Shown here: positions 1-16,400 of the stretch, one piece after another
Layout: the number at the start of each line of letters is the position of its first letter
How positions within the stretch are numbered: position 1 is the first letter of the stretch
Virus record (IMG/VR): IMGVR_UViG_3300030116_004023
From: an uncultured virus (IMG/VR IMGVR_UViG_3300030116_004023)
Lineage: Duplodnaviria; Heunggongvirae; Uroviricota; Caudoviricetes
DNA length: 20,000 nucleotides
Strand: one strand, 5' to 3'
Program-made: the position numbers and the translations under genes
Notes under the pieces: generated by a model
Told to the model about the DNA's origin: nothing
What the model saw: the letters and a program-made list of their open reading frames with translations, nothing else
Database searches by the model: none

Positions 1-711
1 TGCAATAGTTAATCCTGTAGTTCCATCATGTGTAAGGGTAGCATCATTACCAGCACCTAAACTTAGAATAGCAGAATCAGATAACAACATTAAGTCGTCC
101 CCTATAACAGCGTCTAGTGCAACACTTAGTCCACCATCAGTTTGTAAAGAACCATCGGTTGTAGACGTTGCGTTGGTAGAGTCATCTGTTTTTATTATGC
201 CACTAGCTGTAATTGTGGATGATGTTAAAGCTGCAGTGGCTAATGTCCCACCAGCAACTGTTAGTGTATTACCACTATGAGTTAAAGTTACATCTCCATT
301 GTTAAAGTTTATTACACTACCTGAAGCTAAGAATAAATCTGACCACATCAAACTTGTAGTTCCCAAAGCAGTACCATCACTAGTTCCGGGAGAAAGACTA
401 TTTTCAGCTAACTCTACTTCTTTTGCATTATTAGCATAAAAGTTTATTTTGTTAGCGTCTTCAAAATCTATTTTAGTCTGGTCGTCCTCACCAATCTTAA
501 TATCTGTGGCGAGTAAGGAGGTTATACCTGTTTGGGCTGCATCAACATTTAATGTATTTGTAGATAGTGTTATACCTGTCCCTGCTGAAAAAGCAGTTTT
601 AGACATAGCAATAGCTGCAGATGCATTAATGTCTGCATTAACAATAGCACCATCAGTTATATCATCTGATGATAATGCTGCTTGTGCTGGCTCTTTTCCT
701 ACAAATCCCAA
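1..711 (-). CDS. Phage fibre / receptor-binding protein, N-terminal part (runs off window); paralog of 1019..3607
   Basis: Not in ORF track. Hand translation from TTG at 711 is open to base 1: MGFVGKEPAQAALSSDDITDGAIVNADINASAAIAMSKTAFSAGTGITLSTNTL... AGGAGG at 721-726. First 158 aa differ from the 862-aa fibre at 17 positions (hand count). Confidence 0.9.
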   Translation of the reverse strand, partial: MGFVGKEPAQAALSSDDITDGAIVNADINASAAIAMSKTAFSAGTGITLSTNTLNVDAAQTGITSLLATDIKIGEDDQTKIDFEDANKINFYANNAKEVELAENSLSPGTSDGTALGTTSLMWSDLFLASGSVINFNNGDVTLTHSGNTLTVAGGTLATAALTSSTITASGIIKTDDSTNATSTTDGSLQTDGGLSVALDAVIGDDLMLLSDSAILSLGAGNDATLTHDGTTGLTIA

Positions 712-730
712 TTGTTTATTCCTCCTTTAT

Positions 731-739
731 TATTATACT
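731..739 (-). promoter_or_regulatory. AGTATAATA motif (putative phage late promoter)
   Basis: tattatact on + strand, overlapping the stop of the 89-aa gene and just upstream of the SD of the 1..711 gene; motif recurs before other genes. Confidence 0.7.
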
Positions 740-1008
740 TAGTTTTCCCAATCATCATTCCAATCGCTTCTTTTAGTCCAAGTACCACTGTCGTAGTCAT
801 ACTTGTCTCCAAAATAATCTGACGGGGCATTAGTTACATTTTCAACTATCGTAGAGTTACCACTATGTAAGTCTCCAATTATTAGCTCTGGTGGGTCTCC
901 TACTATTATTTGGTCAGATGTAACAGTTAATGTTTTATTGTCTGGGTAAAGATATTTTACTCGTTTAGTTTGTTCTGCTACTCCAGATGAAATTATTATT
1001 TTACTCAT
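739..1008 (-). CDS. Small acidic fibre-associated protein (putative tip partner/chaperone)
   Basis: 89 aa; SD AGGAGAG overlaps the stop of the 862-aa fibre; aromatic-rich C-terminus (KYDYDSGTWTKRSDW) like small proteins that follow phage fibres. Confidence 0.6.
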   Translation of the reverse strand: MSKIIISSGVAEQTKRVKYLYPDNKTLTVTSDQIIVGDPPELIIGDLHSGNSTIVENVTNAPSDYFGDKYDYDSGTWTKRSDWNDDWEN

Positions 1009-1018
1009 TTATTCTCTC

Positions 1019-3607
1019 CTAATCTGTATTATTTACTCTGGGTGGATTTACTAATAATGTAGTTGCCGTAAGTGCCTTCCCTGCAAATACTGAACCAGAT
1101 GTAGTTGATAATGCTCCAGCAGAGTCTACATAATACTCTGTTCCAATCGTCAAAGAGCTTTGCCCTGTAGCTACACCACCCGTAGTAGTAATAGTACCAG
1201 AAGCATCGTCAGAAATTGCATCATTTGCAAACCCAATAAAGGAACTAGCATTTTTTGCTAGCGTTGGTACCAAAACAAAAACTCCTGTATCTCCTGTTGT
1301 ACTCTTATATGAAATAACGGTTCTATTTGAATTGGTGTCATAAATAGCATCTACATACTCTACGTTCCCTCCACCAGTTACACTGGCTCGAGCGTGGATT
1401 CTAGTTCGTGCCTCTACATTATAAGTAGCACTTGAACCTGTACCAGAAATTGTTCCTACGGTACCTAGTATTCCATTCTGACCATGAATAAAAATAACTT
1501 TTTGGTTGTCAGGGTCATAAACACCAGATACAAAATTCCCCATAGTTGTGTCATCTGAGGTATCTTCTATAAGAACATGTTGTCCTGCCGTAATAGTTCC
1601 TGAAGCACTAGTAAACACCCAAGCTTCAAATTGACTACTCAAGCCTTGATGACTAGCTACATTTATATTTTTATCTGGGTCATGAATAAGAATGCCACCA
1701 TTCCCAGCAGTTGTTATTTCGTTATCGTTAGTTAATCGTACAGCTGTTCCTCCTGTTATTGAGTTGTCTGAACTATCTATTGTCAATGCTCTAGCATAAG
1801 GATAATTACTATCTTCTGTGTTTCTATAAAGTATCATAACTTTATTATCGTTTGAGTCAAAACAAAGCATGGGGATTTCTGTAGCAGGAGTAATATATAA
1901 TTTGCTCCCAGCACTTTGAATATCATTATCAGTACTTCCTCGAACAGTAAATGCTTGAACTACACATTTGTTAGAATCATCCGCATCCTCGTAAGAAACC
2001 AAAACTCTATTAGCATTTGAATCAAACACACTAATAACTTCTTTATTGGAATTATCTACTGATTGAGCACTGCCTTTTGAGATTGTGTTAGTACTTGTAT
2101 TATCTACTTCCCACACAACAGCTCTTATACCGGAAGATGTAGGATATGTAGAAACAAATCTATCTACATTTGTATCATATACCATGCCTCTAAATTCATT
2201 GGTAACAGCGGCACTTTCAAGAACCACTGCGGTACCAAAAGATACATCCCCAGCAGATGCATCTGTTATCCCCCCTACAATTGCCGTTGGGTAGTTACTA
2301 TTACCACCATCTCTATATGTTATACCAATCTTGTTGTTGTCTGGGTCAAAAGCCATTGATTTATAATAGACTTGGTCTGTTTCAATCTCAGTTGCGTTGG
2401 GACTAGAAGCGGTTCCAAAAGCTTTCCCTGTTTGGAGGGATTCAGTTGTTTCTACATCTCCATCACTACGAAGTGAAACTCTATCTCCAGCTGAAATATT
2501 CCCGTTAGCTGTAGCCGTGAAGCTACCACCACCTCCACCAATATATGTTGAAATATCAGATGCTGGTATTTGCTTAGTAGTTGTACCATCAATTACAATA
2601 AATGCGTCTGCATCGGCAAGAGTAATTGAAGAAGTAGATTTAGCAGAACCATCTAAAAGATTTAGCTCTGCAGCAGTAGATGTAATATTAGTTCCCCCAA
2701 TATCAAGCGTAGTTGCTGATAGTTCACCAGCTACTGTTACTATATTTCCACTAGCAGTTAATGTTATTAAATCTTCATCGCCCACAGGACCAATTGTACC
2801 TGTAGTTTTTATTACTAACCCACCATCGTCTATAGTTAGTATATCTGTACCATCTATGTCGAATACCATCTTACCGTGGTCGGCAGTTCCTGACGCTGTC
2901 GCAGTAGAAAAATGTACTTCCTCTGCAGTCTTGTTTGAACTACCATTAAGTACTTCTATCTTCAAAGCCTCTGTGGCACTTGTACCTATACTAAAAGAAG
3001 CATCTGCATTATTATTATCGTCAAATAAAGTTATATCCCCATAAGTTAATGCTAAAGTGTTTGACACAGTACCCATAGCAGTAACACCTGCTAACGTAGT
3101 AATATTAGGTTGAGAGGCTGTTGAAATTGTAGCGGCTAAGTTTCCCCCAGCAATTGTTAAAGTATTGCTAGAGTGAGTTAGTGTCACGTCACCATTATTG
3201 AAATTGATTACAGAGCCATCTGCTAAGAAAAGGTCTGACCACATAAGGCTTGTTGTACCCAATGCAGTTCCGTCACTACTTCCCGGTGATAAACTGTTTT
3301 CTGCCAGTTCAACTTCTTTTACATTGTTTGCATAAAAATTAATTTTATTATTATCTTCAAAATCAATTTTAGTTTCGTTGTCTTCACCAATTTTTATATC
3401 AGTTGCTAATAAAGATGTTATTGTTGTTTGTGCAGCATCAACGTTTAAAGTGTTAGTTGATAGAGTAACACCATTTCCAGCACTAAAGGCTGTCTTAGAC
3501 ATAGCTATAGCAGCTGAAGCGTTTATATCAGCATTTACTATTACACCATCTGTTATGTCATCTGAAGATAGAGCAACTCTAGTAGGTTTTTTACCAACGA
3601 ATCCCAA
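1019..3607 (-). CDS. Phage fibre / receptor-binding protein with predicted C-terminal beta-propeller
   Basis: 862 aa; TTG start with AGGAGGA at 3615-3621; T/S/G/D-rich shaft; polyGly linker; seven (F/Y/H)D-x-x-x-(N/D/Q)-(K/R/I)-hydrophobic repeats in the C-terminal half. Confidence 0.8.
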   Translation of the reverse strand: MGFVGKKPTRVALSSDDITDGVIVNADINASAAIAMSKTAFSAGNGVTLSTNTLNVDAAQTTITSLLATDIKIGEDNETKIDFEDNNKINFYANNVKEVELAENSLSPGSSDGTALGTTSLMWSDLFLADGSVINFNNGDVTLTHSSNTLTIAGGNLAATISTASQPNITTLAGVTAMGTVSNTLALTYGDITLFDDNNNADASFSIGTSATEALKIEVLNGSSNKTAEEVHFSTATASGTADHGKMVFDIDGTDILTIDDGGLVIKTTGTIGPVGDEDLITLTASGNIVTVAGELSATTLDIGGTNITSTAAELNLLDGSAKSTSSITLADADAFIVIDGTTTKQIPASDISTYIGGGGGSFTATANGNISAGDRVSLRSDGDVETTESLQTGKAFGTASSPNATEIETDQVYYKSMAFDPDNNKIGITYRDGGNSNYPTAIVGGITDASAGDVSFGTAVVLESAAVTNEFRGMVYDTNVDRFVSTYPTSSGIRAVVWEVDNTSTNTISKGSAQSVDNSNKEVISVFDSNANRVLVSYEDADDSNKCVVQAFTVRGSTDNDIQSAGSKLYITPATEIPMLCFDSNDNKVMILYRNTEDSNYPYARALTIDSSDNSITGGTAVRLTNDNEITTAGNGGILIHDPDKNINVASHQGLSSQFEAWVFTSASGTITAGQHVLIEDTSDDTTMGNFVSGVYDPDNQKVIFIHGQNGILGTVGTISGTGSSATYNVEARTRIHARASVTGGGNVEYVDAIYDTNSNRTVISYKSTTGDTGVFVLVPTLAKNASSFIGFANDAISDDASGTITTTGGVATGQSSLTIGTEYYVDSAGALSTTSGSVFAGKALTATTLLVNPPRVNNTD

Positions 3608-3619
3608 TGTCTAGTCCTC

Positions 3620-3946
3620 CTATGTACTTATGTCACCAACAACACTACACCATACATCTAGTGAGCTTGCTGTGTCGGTATCTACTTTTAAGGCATCTCC
3701 ATTTGCTAAAACAAATCTACTACCACCATCAATTAGTTCTAAGGAAGAACCTGTAGGTATTGAAACCTGTTTAATTAAATAATAATCGGCACTACTTACA
3801 GTAACAAAAGCATCTACTACAATAGTACCTGAATGAATGTTGGTTAATCTTAAGCTAACAACTGCATCATCACCATCTGCAGTGAATACAGTTGCCCCTG
3901 AAGTTCCTACACTTCTTTGTATATGTCTTTCAAAATCTTGTGCCAT
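3620..3946 (-). CDS. Small beta-rich structural protein, putative fibre adaptor/hub
   Basis: 108 aa; SD AGGAG; alternating hydrophobic strands (YYLIKQVSIPTGSSLELIDGGSRFVLANGDALKV); lies between the GFATAMAIAL-ending fibre and the MGFVG..P fibres. Confidence 0.65.
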   Translation of the reverse strand: MAQDFERHIQRSVGTSGATVFTADGDDAVVSLRLTNIHSGTIVVDAFVTVSSADYYLIKQVSIPTGSSLELIDGGSRFVLANGDALKVDTDTASSLDVWCSVVGDIST

Positions 3947-3963
3947 TTATTTCTCCTATAGTA

Positions 3964-3972
3964 TATTATACT
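3964..3972 (-). promoter_or_regulatory. AGTATAATA motif (putative phage late promoter)
   Basis: Exact motif in the 45-nt intergenic gap, upstream of the SD of the 108-aa gene. Confidence 0.7.
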
Positions 3973-3991
3973 ATCATAAATACTAAAAATT

Positions 3992-6900
3992 CTATAGTGC
4001 TATTGCCATTGCTGTAGCAAATCCTTTTGAAGCCGCCGTAGAGTTTATATGTGTTGTCAATGTATCTAAGCCTACTTTCTTCAATGTTCCACCATCTGAA
4101 TATAATAATTCATCTGCATCTGCTAATCCTGATGATATTTCTGTTTGTCCTGAAATTACATTGTCATTTAGCATTCCAGATTCTACAGCATCATTTGCTA
4201 TTGTTACAGCACCACTAGATGATAAAGTTACATCTCCACTTACAGCTACTGGATTATAGTTTGTGTCATCACCTACTAAAATATGCCCAGCAGTATTTGT
4301 GTTCATAAACAAATCATCACCAGTAATAGTCAAGTCTCCTGTTATAGATACTCCACTATCATTGATTTCCATTTGGTCGGTGCCATCAATATCAAACACC
4401 ATCTTTCCGTGGTTTGCTGTACTAGAAGCAGTTGCTGTTGAGAAATGTATTTCTTCAGCAGTTTTATTAGAGCTTCCATTTAGCACTTCAATACTAAGAG
4501 ACTCTGTTGCTGATGTTCCTAGTTTTAGTGAAACATCGGCATTGTTAGCATCTTCGTATATAGTTAAATCACCACCAGTTAATGCAGTAATAGCTTGCGA
4601 AGAATCAACAGCAATAACAGAGTTAGTTGCAGTTAATCCTGTACCAGCAAATAGTGTAGCTACGTCTGCTATGTTTTCTTTAGCGTGGCTTCCTGTAGCT
4701 CCACCATCTAAGAATAATATATAGTCCCCATTAGCAATTGCAGCTTCTCCAGCTTCTGTTAAGTCAACGTCTACTTGGTCGGCTTGAACATCAATTAAGT
4801 TACCAGCAGCAACATTTAGGGTGACATCTCCGTCTGTTCCCCCACCTGTTAATCCTGTACCAGCAACTACGCTTGTTATATCACCATCTATTGCTGTTCC
4901 ATTAATTCTAAATGTTTTTCCTGATGCTAAATTTATTCCTGAATCATCAATATCAAAAATGTCTGTACCATCTACATTAAATGTGAACTTACCATGGTCA
5001 CTAGTACTCGATGCTGTTGCGGTTGAAAAAGTAACTGACTCAGCTGTTTTATTACTACTACCATTAAGAACTTCTATGCTTAGAGCTTCCGTAGCACTCG
5101 TACCCATTTTTAAAGATACATCAGCGTTATTTGCATCTTCATATATTGTTAAGTCACCACCTGTAAGTGCTGTAATAGCTTGTGAAGCATCCACACCTAT
5201 TACTGAAGAAGATGCCGTCAAACCTGTCCCTGCAAACAATGTTGCTAAATCTGCAACAGCTTCTTTTTTAGTAGCATTACTATCATTAGCATCTATAAAA
5301 GCTATACTATCGCCATCAGCTATAGCACCTGCAGAAAGAGAATTTAAACTGTCTCCAGTTACAATATCTGTTCCATTTACTGAAAAAGTTAAACCTGAAC
5401 CTATATCAATACCGCCATCATCAATAGTAAGTATATCAGTTCCGTCAACATCAAAAACCATCTTACCATGATTAGCTGTAGAAGAAGCTGTAGCGGTACT
5501 AAAGTGTACCTCTTCAGCAGTCTTGTTGCTACTACCGTTGAGCACTTGTATTGTCAAAGACTCAGTAGCACTTGTTCCCATTGTTAGTTTTACATCTGCA
5601 TTATTTGCATCTTCAAATATATCTAAGTCACTTCCTAAAGATTTATTGGTAAGCGTTTGTGTAGCTACTGTACTTACAAGCTCGCCATTACCACCGGCTG
5701 GAAGTGTAAGAGTATTTGTTACTCCAGCACTATGTGGTTGTGCTTGTACTGTTTGAGCGTGAGCGTTTGATGACTCACAATAAAATAAAACTTTAGCTAC
5801 AGAACCTGTCCCTGTTCTAATGTCTATTGTTCCATCAGATATACTAATACCTCCGGAACTTCCATTACCATCCATAACAACTTTACCTGAACCATTTGGT
5901 AACAAACTAATATTACCATTTGATGTAGATACAATGTCGTTACTATTTACATCTAAATCTCCACCTAATTGAGGTGTGGTGTCTTCTGAAACGTTTGAAA
6001 GAGCTGAAGATGTGGCTAATCCAGATACAATAGCTGACCGAGTAATTTTTTTCAGTCCTCCGCCAGATGTATCAATTGCTATAAAAACATCATCATTTGC
6101 TACTGAAGAAATTTCTGATAGACTTGCAATATTTGAAATATTAGATGCTGCTAACGAACCACTAAGAACAGTGGATGTAAGTGTACCACTTGATGGATTG
6201 TATGTTAAATTACCATCGGATTCTAATCCAAGGTTACCTCCATCAACATCCCCGCCTGCTGTAAATACAACTGCATTATCTTCATCAGTACTTTCATTAT
6301 CTGTAATAGTTACAGTAGTTGCTATACTAGCAGTCCCTGTAACATTTCCTGTTAAATTACCAGAAAAAGTAGTAGATGTAAGAGTCCCACTTGACGGATT
6401 ATATGTTAGGTTCCCATCAGACTCTAGTCCAAGATTTCCTCCGTCAACATCACCCCCAGCAGTAAAGACAACGGCGTTGTCCTCATTAGTGCTTTCATTG
6501 TCTGTAATGGTAACTGTAGTTGCTACAGCAGCTGTTCCAGAGTATCCACTTGATGTTATAGTTCCTAGTGAAGAGCCATTGTCTGCAAAAGTAATTGTCC
6601 CCCCGTTTGCATCTAAAGTTATTCCTCCTTCAGAATCAAGTGTAACTGTAGTACCTGCTAATTCTGCAGTACCATCTGCAGTTATTTGTATATTAGCTGC
6701 GGCTGCAGCTGTATCAGTAGTTGTAATATCAAGAGTACCATTTGTACCCACAGTAATAGTTGCAGTATCACCAGATGAACCAGTCATAGTTACAACTTTA
6801 CCATCAATAGCTACATCATCTACAGTCAATGCAGAAAGTGTACCTAATGATGTTATATTACCTTGGGCAGCGGTAGCAATAGTACCTGTTAATTCGTTTA

Positions 6901-7465
6901 CTGATAAATTAGCTAAAGCAAACCCTGATGTAGTGTCTACTGTAGTTGAAGGTGCAGCATTGCTGTTCCCTGTAGTAGCAAAAAGCTTCCACATGTCGGA
7001 ATCAGATGCGTCTCTAAATAATCCAGAATATTTTGTACCACTATCTACATATTTACCATACCACCCAATATCAACAGAGTCTGCTGAGTTATTGTCGGCA
7101 AGTGCAAATAGGGGGTCATCAATAGTAACAGTTGTACTGCTTACATTTGTTGTGGTACCATTTACGGTAAGGTTACCACTTAAGGTTAGGTTTGTTCCTT
7201 CTGCGTTAGTTCCTAAAGAAGCTACACCTGAAGAATTTATTGTGATAGCTCCAGAAACTTTAGTAAAAACATATGTAGGTATTCTAGAGGCTGCAAAGTT
7301 TACATTTGTTCCCCCATCCCCACCATTATCAATAATAAGTAAATCTGAGTCCGCAATTGCTTCACTTAAATCGTTCAGACCGGAAATACTTAATCCAGCT
7401 GCGTTTTGTCCAACAAGTTGAGAGCTTCTAGTATATAGTCTATTATTCGCTTGCGATAGAGGCAT
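3992..7465 (-). CDS. Long phage fibre protein built from repeated modules
   Basis: 1157 aa, T/G/S/D/A-rich; internal repeats (2x 67-aa TVTITDNEST...TYNPSSGTLTST; 3x ~73-aa EDANNAD...DDGG); hydrophobic C-terminal ASKGFATAMAIAL. Confidence 0.85.
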   Translation of the reverse strand: MPLSQANNRLYTRSSQLVGQNAAGLSISGLNDLSEAIADSDLLIIDNGGDGGTNVNFAASRIPTYVFTKVSGAITINSSGVASLGTNAEGTNLTLSGNLTVNGTTTNVSSTTVTIDDPLFALADNNSADSVDIGWYGKYVDSGTKYSGLFRDASDSDMWKLFATTGNSNAAPSTTVDTTSGFALANLSVNELTGTIATAAQGNITSLGTLSALTVDDVAIDGKVVTMTGSSGDTATITVGTNGTLDITTTDTAAAAANIQITADGTAELAGTTVTLDSEGGITLDANGGTITFADNGSSLGTITSSGYSGTAAVATTVTITDNESTNEDNAVVFTAGGDVDGGNLGLESDGNLTYNPSSGTLTSTTFSGNLTGNVTGTASIATTVTITDNESTDEDNAVVFTAGGDVDGGNLGLESDGNLTYNPSSGTLTSTVLSGSLAASNISNIASLSEISSVANDDVFIAIDTSGGGLKKITRSAIVSGLATSSALSNVSEDTTPQLGGDLDVNSNDIVSTSNGNISLLPNGSGKVVMDGNGSSGGISISDGTIDIRTGTGSVAKVLFYCESSNAHAQTVQAQPHSAGVTNTLTLPAGGNGELVSTVATQTLTNKSLGSDLDIFEDANNADVKLTMGTSATESLTIQVLNGSSNKTAEEVHFSTATASSTANHGKMVFDVDGTDILTIDDGGIDIGSGLTFSVNGTDIVTGDSLNSLSAGAIADGDSIAFIDANDSNATKKEAVADLATLFAGTGLTASSSVIGVDASQAITALTGGDLTIYEDANNADVSLKMGTSATEALSIEVLNGSSNKTAESVTFSTATASSTSDHGKFTFNVDGTDIFDIDDSGINLASGKTFRINGTAIDGDITSVVAGTGLTGGGTDGDVTLNVAAGNLIDVQADQVDVDLTEAGEAAIANGDYILFLDGGATGSHAKENIADVATLFAGTGLTATNSVIAVDSSQAITALTGGDLTIYEDANNADVSLKLGTSATESLSIEVLNGSSNKTAEEIHFSTATASSTANHGKMVFDIDGTDQMEINDSGVSITGDLTITGDDLFMNTNTAGHILVGDDTNYNPVAVSGDVTLSSSGAVTIANDAVESGMLNDNVISGQTEISSGLADADELLYSDGGTLKKVGLDTLTTHINSTAASKGFATAMAIAL
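4352..5630 (-). repeat. Three copies of a ~73-aa fibre module (~4352-4576, ~4937-5159, ~5411-5630); a fourth copy at ~2820-3040 in the next fibre
   Basis: Consensus GDLTIYEDANNADVSLKMGTSATEALSIEVLNGSSNKTAEEVHFSTATASSTANHGKMVFDIDGTDILTIDDGG; copies differ at many synonymous sites. Confidence 0.9.
6170..6530 (-). repeat. Tandem 201-nt (67-aa) repeat inside the long fibre
   Basis: ctttcatt anchor at 6291 and 6492; protein ATTVTITDNESTxEDNAVVFTAGGDVDGGNLGLESDGNLTYNPSSGTLTST twice. Confidence 0.9.
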
Positions 7466-7468
7466 CTT

Positions 7469-7798
7469 TTATCTCCCCCATACAATGCCACGTATTCTGG
7501 CGTTAGTGCTACCTTCCCTTATAATACTTATCTTACTGCTAAAATATATGTTATCGTCAAAATAACCTTCGTCTGCTGGAACTAACATTCCTGTTGATGA
7601 TGTTGCATCTTCGTCAAATGCTATATATGCTCCTGCTGTCTCTACTACAAAAGAAACTTTGTTCCCTTCTTCCATCTTCCCTGTTAAATCTAATGCTGTT
7701 TCTACAGTACTACCTGATGTAGTATGTGTAAACGTTGCATGTTTTTGATAAGCTTGGAGTAATTCAATTTCCTGCCTCCAAGGAGCTTTATCTGCCAT
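7469..7798 (-). CDS. Hypothetical beta-rich protein, probably virion structural
   Basis: 109 aa; AGGAGG SD at 7805-7810; its stop lies 3 nt before the long-fibre start. Confidence 0.6.
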   Translation of the reverse strand: MADKAPWRQEIELLQAYQKHATFTHTTSGSTVETALDLTGKMEEGNKVSFVVETAGAYIAFDEDATSSTGMLVPADEGYFDDNIYFSSKISIIREGSTNARIRGIVWGR

Positions 7799-8795
7799 TT
7801 GCTACCTCCTGCTTTTTAAACTTTAATAAAGTTGGTTTATAATTTCCTAAGTTATGTGTCCTAACATTTTCTTTCCCATTAGGCATAACAAAACCTTCTT
7901 GAGAAGCAATAGCTGCCATAGAAGTATAAGTTGGTTTAGACAACTCATCTCTATAAGCTTTATTCAACTGTCTTACGTAAGATAATTCTTTCATCATATC
8001 ATCTAAAGTATTACTCATGTCCGTAATAATATCAGCTTGTTTAGAAATTTTAGTTTCTAAAGTATTTTTAGATTTATGTGTATTAGTACTTTCAATTTCC
8101 ATATTACTAATCCAATCCCTTAGTTTTGCCTCAATTGATTTTATTTCTTCTAACTGAACATTTAATTCTTTGTTCTCTACTTCGTAATAAGTTACTAAGT
8201 CTATAAAAGATTTATTCTTTTCAATTAGTTCTTTATTTATTTTACTCGTTTCATCAGCAAAACTTTTAAGTTCTTTATTTTTATTAGAAACTTGTTCAAA
8301 ATCAACCTCTGTAGATTGTTTTAACGAAACGGCTTCTTTGGTTTGTTTTTCTAATTCATTATTAGATTGCTGAAAGTTTTCTAATTGTTGTCTTAGTAAA
8401 TTAACTTCTTGTGATTGAGAAACTGTTTTACTTCTAAGAGTTTGTAATTCATTTTCTTTAACACTAGCACTTCCTTTTGCAGCTAAGTACTGTTCTTTTA
8501 AATCTGGAATTGTTTCTACTTCTGTTTGAAGAATAGAAAGATTTTTTTCTAACTCATGAATTTTTTCTCTGTTTTTGTCAGCTTCAACTCTTTCTAATTT
8601 TAAGTTATCTTCAATAGCATTAAATTTAGAAACCGCATCATCTCGTTCAGCTTCTATTCGTCTGTAATGACCTAGTTGAGAATTAAGTTCTGCAATCTCT
8701 GCTTTATACTTAAGTTCAGCAGCATCATTGTTTATGACTATTTTATTTGAACGGGCGGTTTTTTTAGGTTTAGATTGGAAATCTCTAAGCTTCAT
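7788..8795 (-). CDS. Long coiled-coil protein
   Basis: 335 aa, E/K/L/Q-rich with heptad pattern and almost no Pro/Gly over ~aa 25-285; overlaps both neighbours. Confidence 0.75.
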   Translation of the reverse strand: MKLRDFQSKPKKTARSNKIVINNDAAELKYKAEIAELNSQLGHYRRIEAERDDAVSKFNAIEDNLKLERVEADKNREKIHELEKNLSILQTEVETIPDLKEQYLAAKGSASVKENELQTLRSKTVSQSQEVNLLRQQLENFQQSNNELEKQTKEAVSLKQSTEVDFEQVSNKNKELKSFADETSKINKELIEKNKSFIDLVTYYEVENKELNVQLEEIKSIEAKLRDWISNMEIESTNTHKSKNTLETKISKQADIITDMSNTLDDMMKELSYVRQLNKAYRDELSKPTYTSMAAIASQEGFVMPNGKENVRTHNLGNYKPTLLKFKKQEVANGR

Positions 8796-9828: not shown

Positions 9829-9837
9829 TATTATACT
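9829..9837 (-). promoter_or_regulatory. AGTATAATA motif (putative late promoter, near-leaderless mRNA)
   Basis: Motif is formed by the last codons and stop (CTA GTA TAA TA) of the 1395-aa gene. Confidence 0.7.
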
Positions 9838-12800
9838 AGTTTTTCTAGTCTTTCCAAAATGTCTTGGCGTTGTTTATGTAATAACTCGTCACTAGGCATT
9901 TGTTTTGCCATTCTGCCTGCTTGTCTTGCCGTACGGGCTACTCTTTTAGAATGTTTACGCTCAAAGTCTTCTCTATTTCCTAAACGTTTATCTGCTACAG
10001 TTTGACCGGCTTTTCTCCTATGATTTGAATGAGTAGGTGGTTTATTTGTTGCATTAAATCTGTTGTTAGAAGCTTCATAATAATTCCAACCATGATTTTC
10101 CATAGCGGTTCTAGCTCTTTGTTTATGGGATTGTGGAGCTTTTTTCTTTCTACTCCCATACAAGGGACCCGTGTTTGTTTTACCTGTTTTTCGATTTAGT
10201 GTTCTATTTACTTTACCTCTACGTTCTTGGGTACTGGGGTCTCGTAAAGCTGTTAGATATGTTTGTATTCTTTCCCACCCTTTTTCTCCGGGCTTAGTAG
10301 TTGTAGGTACACCATCATATTTTGCTGCTAACCATCTTGCTAAACCTTCAGGGTTTTCTATATCATCTGCTTTAAATAAATCACTGAATCTTTGTGACAT
10401 AGTTTTTCCGGGCTTCCTACGAAGTTCCGTACCTGTCTGTTCCCAAACTTTTGGGTTTGGTCTACTCCTTTGTCGTATGTTTCCTTTATCATCAATATCA
10501 GTATAGCTTATAGTATCTGGTTCTGTTGATACAAACTCTCTAAGTCTTTCACTTGCTGTTTTTCCCGCTTGTGAAACTTTGCCAGCTCCTTTTTTACCGG
10601 TGCCCGTAATTCTTCCTATTCCAGCTTTTCCTGCTTGGGCAACTTTACTAGCTCCAGTCTTTCCAGCTTCAGCAACTTTACCTGCTCCTGCAGCAGTAGC
10701 TCCAGCAACTTTACCCGCTCCAGCAGCGGTGGCTCCAGCAACTTTAGTAGCACCTTCTTTAGCAGCCCCAGCTGTGCCTCTCGCAACATCAGCACCAACA
10801 GATTCACTTACTTGTGTTTTCGCAGCTTTAGCTCCCTTAGCAGCAGCTCCTGCGACTCTACCAGCAGCTCTACCAACAGCTTTCCCAGCTCCTCCAACTG
10901 TTCCTGCAAACATTTCTCCGGCACCTACGGGAGATGGCGATGGGTCTGTAAACGCCCTTCCAACTTTCGCCCCAGTTTCTTTTATTTTTTTAGCTCCAGC
11001 AGTAGCGGCTCCTGCAACACCTTTAGCACCAGCAGCAACTCCTTTAGCTCCCGCAACAACACCTCTACCAACTGCTTTACCAGCATCAATTTCTGCTTGA
11101 CCTGCTGCACGGGCAGTGTCTATAATTGCTTCCCCATATTGTTGAGGTGTAACTTTACCCCCAAAAATAGATGGAGAACCCTCTGAATCGTCGACTTCAC
11201 GTCTGTCGTAAAACATACCCCCTTGAGGACCTTTATATGTTCTAACACCTTCGGGGGGTGTACCATAACCTCTAAATTCATTAGGTATATCACTACCTTC
11301 GTAATCTTCGTCCCCAGTAGCATCAGTACTTGTAGGTTTCTCTGGAGCTTCTTGTGTTTCTTTAGGACCGCCCCAAAATTTACCTTCTGGGTCTATTTCT
11401 CGTAGTTTAGCCACTGGACCATACTGGTTGAAGTGCCCTTTGTAATTTTTAGCTTCGTCACCTTTCAATCCTTGAAAGTCTGCTTCCAGTAAATTCATGT
11501 GTTCCTCTGAACCAAAATCAGTTACTTTCTGACCGGCTACTGTAAGTTCACCTTTATTTACAAATTCTGTGTATTGATTTTGAGCTTTTTTCGCATCTGC
11601 CCCAATTTCAATTAATTTAGCAGCAGCTGCGTCATATTTATCAGCCGTTGCCCGTGTTATTTTACCTGCCTTACTAATTTGATGTAAGTCTCCCATAAGT
11701 TTTTGATACATTAATGTACTTCTTCTTTTTTTAGCTACATCAGTTTGATTAGATTTACTTTCATATGGACCTACAGCATTTATATAATCCATTATATTTT
11801 TATCTAAAAAAGATTTTGAATTAATTATAGAGTCTACTCGTTTCTCAATTTTAGCATCAGCTTTTTGTTGGTTTAAGGTATCTTTTTCAGACTGTTTTTG
11901 TTCTTGGTCGTCAATTTTCTTCCCTTCTGTAGTCATTTTGTTGTGCTCATCTCTAAGTTTTTTTCGTAACTTATCAGCACCCATACTTCTTAGTTCTTCT
12001 TCAAAATCTTCTTTGCTTCCAAAAGGATTTGCTTGCTCACCAGTCCCATGAGTTTTAGCGTATAAATAATCAAATACACCGCTTTCTTTAGCTGTATTAA
12101 TTAAATCATCTTCAGGGGAAGTAGCTTCACTTTTGGTTTTAGCAGAATCTCCAGCTTGCTGTTTAGATTTATCTTTAGCTTGTTGGTTAGAGTCACCACC
12201 CGGAGGTGGGATATAATCTTCATCAGTAAATGTTCCCGACCCACTACCATTTGTATATCTCCATCCGGGTTCTTTATTATTTTCATCAGTGTAAGATTGT
12301 TCATAGTTACCATGCATAATTGGTAAATTATCTGGGTTAGATGGGTTACTGTCGCCCTCAAACTTTTCTCCTGCAGATATTCTGCCAGAAACAACATTAG
12401 CTTGGCTTGGTCCCTTACCTGAATTATTAGTAATTTCTACATAATCTTGAGCGTCTAATGGGGTTTGTAAGTTTTCCGGTTTTTTTAGTGCTTTATCTCC
12501 CATAAATGAAGGGGAGTATGCAGATACAAAAGTTTTAAAATCATTTTCTAAAGAAGCACTTTGATTTTTTAAATGTGATTGAAAAGAATTATTGTACCCA
12601 CTAAAAGAATATCCGTGTAGATGGCTATAATCATCATCTGTCATACTACCTGATTCAACTTTATCGGCAAGTTTTTCGATTAGTGAAGATTTATGTCCCT
12701 TATAGTCACTTTGATTTTGTCTTCGTTTTTGTTCTAAAATTATTCTATCTCCAGAAGATTTATAGTTATCTAAAACTTTTTGCCTTCTTTGGTTTCTTGC

Positions 12801-14018
12801 GGCTTCCTCTTCAGCTTCTTGCTGTTCACGTGTTTGAAATTCTAAGGGTTCACTTTCGCCTGAAGTTTTTTCAGTTTCTGTTTGTCCACCTGCAGGTTCG
12901 GGTTTTGATTCTACGCTTTCGGATGGGGCATCATCAGGGTCATGTTGCCTAAGTAAAGCTTCGTTCTCAGTAAAATCTGGTACTTCTGAAGCTATAGCAT
13001 TATCATAATTACTTATGTGTTCGTCAATGAGGGCTTCAGTTAAAGTCTTCTTACCCATGTCATTATAGTAGTCATCTAATGCACTTACTTCATCCATTAG
13101 ATTTTTACGAGTACTAATATTTTTATTAGTAAACCATTTTTTACTAGTTTCAGTATTTTCAAAAGTTCCATCGTCAACTAACTCTTGATGTTGTTCTTCA
13201 ACTTCTTTATCTGAAGGAGCTAAATTAATATATGTTTTAGGAAAATGTTTGTCATAATTGTCTTTCGTTAAATTAACATGGTTGAATGAAGAAGGTAAGT
13301 TAAAGTCCCCATGTTCGTTTGTTGCTAACACGTGGGCAAAGCCTAATGGTGATATCCGTTTACTATTACCCAAAAGATATCCATTTCTTCTTAATGTTTT
13401 CAGTCTTTGGTTATTACCTTCTACGGTCACAGGATTTTTCTGTAACAATGTTTGAAACACTTTTTCTTTTTCTTCAAGAGGTAATGAATAAACATGTTTA
13501 TTAATAGCATCCATCGCCTCATCTTCTGGACCAGTTAAAGTATCATCATCCCCTCTTAGAATATTATCTGTTAACGTAAATAAATTGTTTTTAAGATTTT
13601 GTTTTTGCTCTTCCGATAATTTTTTAATCCTACTGTCAGCAGCCCAACCTCTAGGAGGTTTATCCTTTGCATCTTGTCTAAACTTATCTGTATAGTTATT
13701 ATTAAATAAACTATTAAAAGCACTATTAAGGTCCGCATTTGAATAATCATCGGGACTTTTTAAAGGTTTCTGTTTTAATAAAACTATATCATCACTAGAT
13801 TTTTTCATCTGTTCTAAGTGATTAAATAAAGAATTGATTGGGGATTCGTCTGGGGTTGTTGCCATAGCTAAAGCTTTAGCATTGTTATCGTATTGACGAG
13901 CCCTGTAACTAGCTTCCATTCGAGCTGCTTGTTCTCTAGTCTGACCGGGCTTAATATCAAGCTCTGGGTCTTTTACTAAAGCGTTATAGAATTGTTCAAC
14001 TTTATTACTTGTAGTCAT
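9831..14018 (-). CDS. Giant low-complexity phage protein, probable head-internal/ejected protein
   Basis: 1395 aa; acidic disordered segments, PPEGVRTYKGPQGGMFYD motif, A/G/K 11-mer repeats, very basic C-terminus; no catalytic motif recognised. Confidence 0.75.
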   Translation of the reverse strand: MTTSNKVEQFYNALVKDPELDIKPGQTREQAARMEASYRARQYDNNAKALAMATTPDESPINSLFNHLEQMKKSSDDIVLLKQKPLKSPDDYSNADLNSAFNSLFNNNYTDKFRQDAKDKPPRGWAADSRIKKLSEEQKQNLKNNLFTLTDNILRGDDDTLTGPEDEAMDAINKHVYSLPLEEKEKVFQTLLQKNPVTVEGNNQRLKTLRRNGYLLGNSKRISPLGFAHVLATNEHGDFNLPSSFNHVNLTKDNYDKHFPKTYINLAPSDKEVEEQHQELVDDGTFENTETSKKWFTNKNISTRKNLMDEVSALDDYYNDMGKKTLTEALIDEHISNYDNAIASEVPDFTENEALLRQHDPDDAPSESVESKPEPAGGQTETEKTSGESEPLEFQTREQQEAEEEAARNQRRQKVLDNYKSSGDRIILEQKRRQNQSDYKGHKSSLIEKLADKVESGSMTDDDYSHLHGYSFSGYNNSFQSHLKNQSASLENDFKTFVSAYSPSFMGDKALKKPENLQTPLDAQDYVEITNNSGKGPSQANVVSGRISAGEKFEGDSNPSNPDNLPIMHGNYEQSYTDENNKEPGWRYTNGSGSGTFTDEDYIPPPGGDSNQQAKDKSKQQAGDSAKTKSEATSPEDDLINTAKESGVFDYLYAKTHGTGEQANPFGSKEDFEEELRSMGADKLRKKLRDEHNKMTTEGKKIDDQEQKQSEKDTLNQQKADAKIEKRVDSIINSKSFLDKNIMDYINAVGPYESKSNQTDVAKKRRSTLMYQKLMGDLHQISKAGKITRATADKYDAAAAKLIEIGADAKKAQNQYTEFVNKGELTVAGQKVTDFGSEEHMNLLEADFQGLKGDEAKNYKGHFNQYGPVAKLREIDPEGKFWGGPKETQEAPEKPTSTDATGDEDYEGSDIPNEFRGYGTPPEGVRTYKGPQGGMFYDRREVDDSEGSPSIFGGKVTPQQYGEAIIDTARAAGQAEIDAGKAVGRGVVAGAKGVAAGAKGVAGAATAGAKKIKETGAKVGRAFTDPSPSPVGAGEMFAGTVGGAGKAVGRAAGRVAGAAAKGAKAAKTQVSESVGADVARGTAGAAKEGATKVAGATAAGAGKVAGATAAGAGKVAEAGKTGASKVAQAGKAGIGRITGTGKKGAGKVSQAGKTASERLREFVSTEPDTISYTDIDDKGNIRQRSRPNPKVWEQTGTELRRKPGKTMSQRFSDLFKADDIENPEGLARWLAAKYDGVPTTTKPGEKGWERIQTYLTALRDPSTQERRGKVNRTLNRKTGKTNTGPLYGSRKKKAPQSHKQRARTAMENHGWNYYEASNNRFNATNKPPTHSNHRRKAGQTVADKRLGNREDFERKHSKRVARTARQAGRMAKQMPSDELLHKQRQDILERLEKLV
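10560..10770 (-). repeat. 33-nt (11-aa) degenerate tandem repeat, Ala/Gly/Lys-rich
   Basis: aacttt anchor at 10575, 10641, 10674, 10707, 10740; units ATKVAGATAAG / AGKVAGATAAG / AGKVAEAGKTG / ASKVAQAGKAG / IGRITGTGKKG / AGKVSQAGKTA. Confidence 0.85.
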
Positions 14019-14049: not shown

Positions 14050-14472
14050 TTAGCAATCCCAATTTACTTTAGGAGTGTTATCGTCTTTTTTATTTTCTAA
14101 CCACCATTTAGTTGTATTTTTTGTACCACCAAAATATTCGATGGCATGTCCTTCTTCAATAAGCAAATCGTTTAGATTTATCCCATCAGCATAAATAGTG
14201 CCCAAGATTCTTCCGTATTTTCCTCTGGCTTTTTTGTCAATTGCTGTACGGAGGGATAAAGTCTCACCTTTTTCCAAGAGCTCTTTAAGCCTAGCTTTCG
14301 CAGCAAGTCCATATTGTTTTTCCTCTAAGTCTCTAGTTCTAGATTCTGGTGTGTTTAAACCATACAATCTAATTCTTTGTTTTTTTAACATAACTGAAAA
14401 ACCTAAATCTAGGTGTACATCAATTGTGTCTCCGTCTACTACTCTGTCTAATTCAAATCTATATTCATACAT
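14050..14472 (-). CDS. Thermonuclease (staphylococcal nuclease, SNase-like) family protein
   Basis: Family motifs RVVDGDT, RIRLYGLNTPE, GKYGRILG, NDLLIEEGHA; no signal peptide. Confidence 0.92.
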   Translation of the reverse strand: MYEYRFELDRVVDGDTIDVHLDLGFSVMLKKQRIRLYGLNTPESRTRDLEEKQYGLAAKARLKELLEKGETLSLRTAIDKKARGKYGRILGTIYADGINLNDLLIEEGHAIEYFGGTKNTTKWWLENKKDDNTPKVNWDC

Positions 14473-16198: not shown

Positions 16199-16234
16199 AA
16201 AGTCCTCCAAAAACCTAATTAATATTAGTTACTT

Positions 16235-16243
16235 AATTATACT
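16235..16243 (-). promoter_or_regulatory. AGTATAATT (one-mismatch late motif) at the head of the minus-strand block
   Basis: CTAGTATAATT ~35 nt upstream of the first minus-strand gene. Confidence 0.6.
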
Positions 16244-16400
16244 AGTTAATAGAAGAAAATTATTAAAGTTAATTAATATATATATTTAATTAATATATTA
16301 TATATATACTGGACCCCCCGGACAGGGGTATTTTAATATATTATTAGAATTTTAAAAGTTGTCAATAGGTTATTTTATTGTTTTTTGCAATTTTATTAAC

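Follow-up and report, generated by a model that had tools for sequence, protein, structure and literature searches.

In a 20,000-nucleotide (nt) stretch of DNA from an uncultured virus of the Caudoviricetes (IMG/VR record IMGVR_UViG_3300030116_004023; hereafter the window), we examined a gene module that encodes a 1157-amino-acid (aa) fibre-like protein (the trunk), a 108-aa protein (the hub) and two fibres with a common N-terminus (tips 1 and 2). The hub probably joins the trunk and the two further fibres into a jointed or forked tail fibre. The proposed assembly would consist of three kinds of part: a virion-anchored proximal trunk, of which the C-terminal tail is the only family-wide conserved element; a jelly-roll hub, probably a trimer, in which the trunk tail or tails would be seated; and two distal, host-specific fibres, each coming with its own small partner gene, whose N-terminal peptides (M-x-(Y/F)-(I/L/V)-G) the hub would hold. 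One anchored stalk would then bear two different receptor-binding arms, either together as a fork or as alternatives. We put the probability of this three-part joint, with the tail in the hub and the hub holding the N-terminal peptides of two distal fibres, at roughly 55%. That trunk, hub and motif-bearing fibres belong to one virion fibre assembly is very likely. We infer each physical contact, the stoichiometry and the presence of the hub in the virion; docking of tail to hub and of hub to peptide is suggested by gene order, from the existence of minimal trunks and from a hub that is conserved while the tips vary.

The sequence-only reading of the window had listed a 109-aa protein, the 1157-aa trunk, the 108-aa protein, an 862-aa fibre, an 89-aa partner and a second MGFVGKxP fibre, and all of these open reading frames (ORFs) are present where it placed them, on the minus strand. 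The trunk (3992..7465) has the C-terminus ASKGFATAMAIAL, of which the tail GFATAMAIAL is encoded at 3995..4024 and followed by the stop codon at 3992-3994. A spacer of 45 nt separates it from the hub (3620..3946), which begins with MAQDFER. Tip 1 (1019..3607; 862 aa, MGFVGKKP) and its 89-aa partner (739..1008; MSKIIISSG..) are followed by tip 2 (MGFVGKEP), whose first 237 aa occupy 1..711 in an open frame that is cut at the window edge. Both tip genes start with TTG behind AGGAGGA, as had been claimed. The ribosome-binding site of tip 1 (3615..3621) overlaps the hub stop codon and lies 7 nt before the TTG at 3605-3607, while that of tip 2 (720..726) lies 8 nt before the TTG at 709-711, and an in-frame stop stands immediately 5' of each TTG start.

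To follow up the suggestion that tail, hub and start motif should co-occur across phage genomes, we surveyed IMG/VR loci in both directions, taking as gene start either the first start codon with a purine-rich site upstream or the motif at the beginning of an ORF. Co-occurrence held strongly each way. Among 80 loci chosen by the hub alone, a tail with its stop lay at most 150 nt upstream of the hub in all 79 that had at least 100 nt there, and in 73 of 77 a start followed by x-(F/Y/L/W/H)-(V/I/L)-G opened a long ORF at most 60 nt past the hub stop. In three of the four exceptions a 94-aa gene intervenes and the motif gene lies at +304. As a strand control, we counted motif ORF starts over 697 kb of related loci; the hub strand had 100 and the opposite strand 1. 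The linkage is far beyond chance. The 68 distinct N-termini read M, P/A/G, Y (66 of them), I/L/V and G (all 68), then a variable stretch with P at position 8 in 33; the M-G-F-V-G of the window is a rarer variant.

The converse sample comprised 80 loci picked through a degenerate DNA pattern for F-A-x-A-M-A-I-A-L-stop, and the hub was encoded next in 72 of the 73 with at least 340 nt downstream. In 61 of 66 loci with a second class of tail, A-(L/F)-A-I-A-L-G-stop, a hub of a second clade (MANTFK...) came next, which is a lower bound because the profile was built from the first hub clade. In this second clade the next gene carried a Y/F-I/L/V-G core within its first seven residues in 43 of 61 cases. 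One trunk and one hub, with fibres that have an N-terminal motif in common, are the rule, as the sequence-only reading had proposed; there are exactly two motif genes per hub, both downstream, in 18 of the 19 loci that extend at least 5 kb past the hub. The "several" tips of that reading become two, as in the closest relative of the window.

The hubs of the tail-picked samples form 26 and 35 clusters at 70% identity and those of the hub-picked sample only 5; the linkage counts are not independent events, yet they are not one lineage. In a further alternative the genes would merely be inherited together as a cassette, with no specific three-way interaction, and each terminal motif would serve the trimerisation or folding of its own fibre. 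The relatedness of many surveyed loci and the ability of short hydrophobic termini to act as folding nuclei would suit such a cassette. It sits badly with bodies that are mosaic and unrelated behind tail and N-terminal motif while motifs and order stay fixed, and with linkage that spans 26-35 clusters and two deep clades, and we regard it as very improbable.

The sequence-only reading had called the 108-aa protein beta-rich, and the confident AlphaFold2 (AF2) model, computed from a 39-sequence alignment, is all-beta with nine strands and a mean predicted local distance difference test score (pLDDT) of 91.9. It has the form of an eight-to-nine-stranded jelly roll, with structural matches at Z 9.9-7.5 over 94-102 aligned residues. 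The wider structural search with this model returned the KHP40 trimeric cement protein (7dou, Z 9.9), the HFTV1 turret (8qpg, Z 9.8), the Ena spore-appendage subunit (7a02, Z 9.0), SPBc2 YomS (Z 8.5) and many TNF/C1q heads (Z about 7.5), with the Sf6 and HS1 tail-needle knobs also among the neighbours; nearly the whole protein was covered, at 5-14% sequence identity, and these Z values lie close to what the tool gives as background for models that lack a clear match and so indicate the fold class only. Foldseek of the model against PDB gave nothing at E <=0.001, the best match again being the KHP40 cement protein (1.8e-3). When solved structures were searched by sequence, neither the hub profile nor the trunk, tip 1 or three proteins of Yersinia phage GN1 gave anything better than E 0.28, and a search of the ESM Atlas returned only unnamed viral clusters. 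As a fold class, the modelled hub belongs among small oligomeric virion jelly rolls (the KHP40 cement protein, the HFTV1 turret, the Sf6/HS1 knobs and TNF/C1q heads, and also Ena), to which its sequence identity is low; a shared fold shows no function.

The hub family is large, with 715 near-length relatives in a large protein collection and 1,626 clusters at 50% identity in a representative library, of which 452 reach E <=1e-10. With few exceptions these are unnamed, stand-alone proteins of about 105-112 aa, and the family is without annotation in Pfam, NCBIfam and solved structures. The 39 aligned members share 21 invariant columns, including M1, A2, Q3, D4 and F5, and the hallmark of the family, a MAQDF/MANTF start with a D-x-I-S/L-E-x-T end, is present in the 108-aa protein of the window. 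Its only library match is phrog_1276 (E 1e-5), of which the hub family forms the N-terminal part. The hubs of the window, of a SAR116 phage and of SAR11 phages share about 50% identity, whereas the fibres downstream of them are unrelated beyond the motif. Because the hub is conserved while these fibres share only the motif, it behaves like an adaptor and not like a receptor-binding protein.

Some hubs (214-225 aa) carry an insertion of about 115 aa in the loop between the fourth and fifth strands (entries P0138, P0149, P0154 and P0177; loci L122 1540-2214 and L290 3031-3675). Pfam found nothing in P0138, and one source labels a member of this variant "plastocyanin". A few hubs have a real C-terminal extension (P0326, P0309, P0321). 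We considered this extension as a Rosetta-stone link between hub and tip and rejected it, as it has no similarity to tip fibres. Natural trunk-hub or hub-tip fusions were likewise rejected. Most are gene calls in which a stop codon is read as Q (for example AMAVAL-Q-EIN-MAQDF), because the genetic code chosen by the gene caller turns the stop into Q (P0122, P0125-P0130, P0134-P0136, P0191 and P0192), and the apparent fusion P0156 rests on one 2.4-kb contig. Distant hub-like paralogues of 107-137 aa also occur elsewhere with no preceding tail (L075 14586-14930; L335 3935-4348; L286 500-823).

The hub could also be a non-structural chaperone for the trunk, the downstream fibres or both, recognising the terminal peptides during folding and absent from the virion. 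A small gene beside a fibre gene often encodes an assembly factor, conserved terminal peptides might be tags that a chaperone recognises, and we found no verified proteomic sign of the hub in particles. We nevertheless consider this improbable. Individual fibres already have small partner genes of their own behind them, some bearing a tail assembly chaperone annotation; the jelly roll is of the kind seen in capsid, cement, turret and knob proteins; a chaperone would not usually come in versions with an inserted domain or a C-terminal extension; and the hub is labelled "(virion) structural protein" in the GenBank records of HMO-2011, HTVC035P, HTVC103P and S-TIM5, labels for which no proteomic origin could be traced.

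The trunk gave no sequence match in Pfam, PHROG, NCBIfam or solved structures. Self-comparison by blastn and blastp showed three diverged module copies of about 70-100 aa each within 4376..5631 on the minus strand (about 5368-5631, 4894-5254 and 4376-4669) and a fourth copy in tip 1 (about 2820-3041), with 70-73% nucleotide identity over 196-294 nt, although a repeat scan at its settings reported no DNA repeat in the window. The equivalents of the trunk in HMO-2011, HTVC103P and HTVC035P are annotated as tail fibre and match tail-fibre PHROGs, and in HTVC035P gp46 the first 125-170 residues or so have matches to the N-termini of many tail-fibre and tailspike families (PHROGs).

Among 48 aligned trunk ends, conservation was limited to the last 12 or so residues. 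Tail-bearing proteins measure between 62 and more than 1300 aa across the surveyed loci, some being only 62-163 aa, and they fall into several unrelated N-terminal classes (MALVLKDRVKET.., MAGYTRQS.., MASTWS.., MANTIKLKK..). Judged from these sequences, the tail is a portable end-piece. In its pattern, G-F-A-x-A-M-A-I-A-L, large hydrophobic residues alternate with alanine, and in our reading F-A-T-A-M-A-I-A-L resembles a strand packed on one face. An anchor of 62-163 aa with the tail is too small for a receptor-binding domain, and such short anchors with a conserved hub make sense mainly as a socket for something else. At locus L159 a trunk ending in KGFATAMAIAL has behind it not a hub but another beta-rich protein, with the start MADSASVSMTATV, which may be a replacement for the connector or a very divergent form of it. 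Seven HMO-2011-type loci (L038, L056, L058, L063, L070, L078 and L080) have a trunk-hub spacer of 57-58 nt with a near-consensus promoter-like site, CTTGACA...TATGGTATAAT, and the hub and distal fibres of HMO-2011-type loci may have their own promoter; a scan for sigma-70-like sites flagged none in the 45-nt spacer of the window.

The MGFVGKxP start is indeed common to both tips, as the sequence-only reading had noticed, but the shared part is a domain of 158 aa (3134..3607 in tip 1) and not a peptide of 8 residues. Over this domain 141 of 158 residues are identical, compared with 350 of 474 bases and 69 of 158 third positions; the nonsynonymous divergence (dN) is 0.097 and the synonymous divergence (dS) is saturated. 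Beyond residue 160 or so the tips diverge. The two tips are an old duplication in which the N-terminal protein sequence has been held fixed, and their shared domain is under strong purifying selection. The N-terminal domain of tip 1 has 323 relatives in IMG/VR, and tip 1 gave no family or solved-structure match; residues 8-62 of tip 2 weakly match phrog_2012, "minor tail protein". In the C-terminal half of tip 1 (1019-2400) we spotted by eye about seven spaced repeats of the form (V/A/I)(Y/F)D-x-(N/D)-x-(N/D)(K/R)-(V/I)-x-(I/V)-x-(Y/H), a pattern that suggests a beta-propeller-like head.

The closest relative of the window is an IMG/VR contig, L206; in the N-terminal domain its first tip fibre and tip 1 share 89% identity. 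The gene order of L206 runs from a 109-aa gene, cut at the contig end, through a 1039-aa trunk with the same tail and a 108-aa hub with the same start and end, to an 818-aa MGFVGKKP fibre (TTG), a 108-aa MSKILV.. protein, an 879-aa MGFVGKEP fibre (TTG), a 252-aa MSKILV.. protein and unrelated genes. L206 thus carries two MGFVG fibres and no more, with a small MSKI.. gene behind each; from this layout, the rest of tip 2 and its partner are expected leftward of the window, and no further tips. The partner type (MSKIIISSG.. or MSKILV..) tracks the C-terminal end of the preceding fibre in six of six pairs from L206, L207, L209 and the window. We infer from these sequences that the 89-aa partner is a fibre-specific assembly factor or a distal accessory; it gave no match in Pfam, PHROG or NCBIfam.

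The trio of tail, hub and motif fibre also occurs, in unchanged order, in cultured podoviruses and myoviruses that differ in tail and host, namely HMO-2011, the pelagiphages HTVC103P and HTVC035P, cyanophage S-TIM5, Melnitz and Yersinia phage GN1. In HMO-2011 the tail fibre gp43 ends in GFAVAMAIAL and is followed by the hub gp42 and then by gp41 (MPYIGQKVP) and gp33 (MPYIGKSP), and HTVC103P is arranged likewise. The T7-like pelagiphage HTVC035P has a "tail fiber", gp46, ending in GFAIAMAIAL, then a hub and then MPFIG and MAYIG genes. Cyanomyovirus S-TIM5 encodes an 81-aa protein ending in ALSIALG, a 126-aa hub and a 1415-aa "tail fiber" starting MPHIG, and the Yersinia myovirus GN1 a 135-aa protein ending in SMAIALG, a 104-aa hub and a "tail fiber" starting MSYLGRPP.

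Melnitz has the trio twice: a 167-aa protein ending in FSIAIGVALG, a first hub and a fibre starting MSSYLG.. are followed by two genes and then by a protein that starts MAYIGAEP and ends ATALAIALG, a second hub and a fibre starting MPYLG... The protein in the middle belongs to a family of about 200 aa that bears both ends (MSYIG at the start, ATALAIALG at the end), with another hub and another motif fibre encoded behind it, an arrangement repeated in IMG/VR contig L359. Both ends were present in 119 of the 120 best database relatives of the double-ended protein, all 119 being at least 77% identical to the query and so representing one lineage plus Melnitz. Tail, hub and motif could be a general plug-socket-plug connector with one input and two outputs, used recursively by marine podoviruses and myoviruses for forked, multi-level receptor-binding trees, in which double-ended proteins would add hubs and short terminal peptides would make modules exchangeable between unrelated phages. 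We put this extension forward tentatively and hold it to be doubtful.

In HMO-2011-type loci (L001 9784-14599; L003-L082, downstream of the hub), each "adaptor" of about 148-152 aa with an M-P-Y-I-G start is followed by arrays of genes of about 100-160 aa. These start with MSTLKxD, MASELKVD or MTSVLNVD and end in G-D-L-A, 77 of them being distinct in 80 loci, and they often overlap the next gene through TAATG. From their termini they look like a second level of terminal-peptide grammar. T4 gp36 (MADLKVGS) and gp37 (MATLKQIQ) start like the arrayed genes, a resemblance of a few residues only.

Modelling of the contact spoke neither for nor against the three-part joint. Complex prediction with three copies of the last 70 aa of the trunk and three of the hub, run without controls, scored 0.28 against a mark of 0.32, and AF2 applied to P0125 (a database entry that joins a 128-aa trunk to the hub, its stop codon read as Q) gave the tail as a helix with pLDDT below 50. 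Several other observations weigh against the joint. In the second clade 18 of 61 hubs precede a gene without the motif. Many of the surveyed loci are close relatives, as the five clusters of the hub-picked sample show. Tails were found with no hub nearby at L306, L336 and L349, and with another protein behind the tail at L159. The structural-protein labels of the hub were not traced to proteomic data. [quoted passage not shown] A Melnitz fibre scores 26.6 bits with PF03906 at residues 127-191, and related fibres and adaptors, including fibres of L359, score 17-27 bits. In T7 this domain docks on the tail itself, so the motif fibres might dock on the tail and not on the hub, in which case the double-ended proteins would simply be further trunks.

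The main alternative takes the hub as a terminal cap or knob of the trunk only, with the M-x-Y-I-G fibres attached to the tail hub or nozzle in podoviruses or to the baseplate in myoviruses; their start motif would be a further class of virion anchor, and their adjacency would reflect a conserved operon and not contact. It is consistent with the PF03906-like domain behind the peptide in HMO-2011 gp41 (the 23.7-bit match) and related adaptors, with fold neighbours such as the Sf6/HS1 knobs and TNF/C1q heads, with the loop insertion of some hubs, as expected of an exposed module, and with double-ended proteins as additional trunks. We consider it unlikely. Trunks of 62-163 aa whose hub is conserved and independent of the host would be left as appendages that lack any binding function; in 73 of 77 loci the motif gene follows the hub stop within 60 nt; podoviruses and myoviruses both keep the trio, although their tails have no common docking site; and the PF03906-like module is also internal in some fibres (residues 102-182 and 127-191) and is therefore no marker of a tail-binding end. 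In the window, PF03906 was found neither in tip 1 at E up to 1 nor in tip 2 or the trunk at E up to 0.01.

Compared with known systems, the three-part joint would in idea be closest to that of the T4 long tail fibre (gp34, gp35, gp36/gp37). The likeness lies in the gene order, from a long proximal fibre to a small non-fibrous connector, a distal fibre and an assembly factor; in T4, too, a small protein is thought to sit at the joint of two fibre segments, as proposed here for the hub. The differences are that T4 gp34 has no hydrophobic tail and gp36/gp37 no M-x-Y-I-G start, that gp35 has 372 aa and the hub 108 aa, and that the window-type module has two distal fibres per connector. The hub profile scored at most 2.6 bits against T4 gp34, gp35 and gp36, and gp37 was absent from the reported matches. 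With no homology to the T4 connector or fibres and both motifs missing in T4, we rejected membership in the T4-type joint.

In G7C (gp63.1/gp66), CBA120 (TSP1-4) and the K1-5/SP6 adaptors, several receptor-binding proteins reportedly share an N-terminal docking module on one anchored protein, which provides multiple specificities. The docking domains of G7C, CBA120 and K1-5 are said to be about 100 aa long and part of the fibres or spikes themselves. The tips of the window resemble those of G7C and CBA120 in sharing one N-terminal attachment module (the 141 of 158 residues) before diverging. Unlike in those phages, the elements shared across the module are a C-terminal tail of about 10 residues, a separate 108-aa jelly roll and an N-terminal core of about 5 residues. 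T4 gp10-like and XD-type domains gave no Pfam, PHROG or NCBIfam match in trunk, hub or tips, in a search of sequence libraries only, which leaves room for remote similarity. The T7 comparison is confined to the gp17 N-terminal domain, since HMO-2011-type adaptors have behind the peptide a beta-sandwich of weak similarity, which also occurs, at internal positions, in fibres of Melnitz and L359 and, by precomputed annotation, in the double-ended family; we know of no hub or tail motif in T7.

The sequence-only reading knew of no characterised system with this grammar, and our searches of solved structures, Pfam, NCBIfam, PHROGs and the literature agree. Neither tail, hub nor start motif is described in the literature searched, including passages of PMC4819975, PMC6918029, PMC10386132 and bioRxiv 10.1101/2019.12.14.876532. 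In our reading the module is a new and widespread device for connecting jointed or forked fibres, built of unrelated, very compact parts. Its carriers include some of the most abundant known marine phages (HMO-2011-type phages, pelagiphages and cyanomyoviruses), whose host-recognition proteins are almost entirely unannotated. If the three-part joint is correct, three short searchable signatures would show, in thousands of metagenomic phage genomes, which genes encode the anchored stalk, which the connector and which the exchangeable arms that bind the host. It would also account for one stalk with two specificities, and would offer structural biologists a compact fibre-joining device of one 108-aa protein and two peptides.

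The remaining observations concern the surroundings of the module in the window. None of the module's proteins matched Pfam or NCBIfam, and PHROGs gave only the weak matches to phrog_1276 (hub) and phrog_2012 (tip 2). The 109-aa upstream neighbour of the trunk (7469..7798, minus strand) had no match in Pfam, PHROGs or NCBIfam, and the idea that it is a hub paralogue was rejected at an hhalign probability of 0.8%. A 439-aa protein of the window and a 693-aa protein of L206 had no match among cultured phages. On the minus strand beyond the module, a 335-aa protein (7788-8795) matches only coiled-coil families, with SMC/Rad50 models far under their cutoffs, and is probably a long coiled coil of the virion or its assembly. 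A 1395-aa low-complexity protein with A/G/K-rich repeats (9831-14018), possibly an internal or ejection protein, adjoins the gene of a 140-aa staphylococcal-nuclease-like protein (14050-14472; PF00565 E 6e-14, phrog_452), which lies among presumed virion genes. At 16210-16360 the minus-strand virion genes give way to small genes on the plus strand and the GC and AT skew changes as well; this interval is a divergent module boundary.

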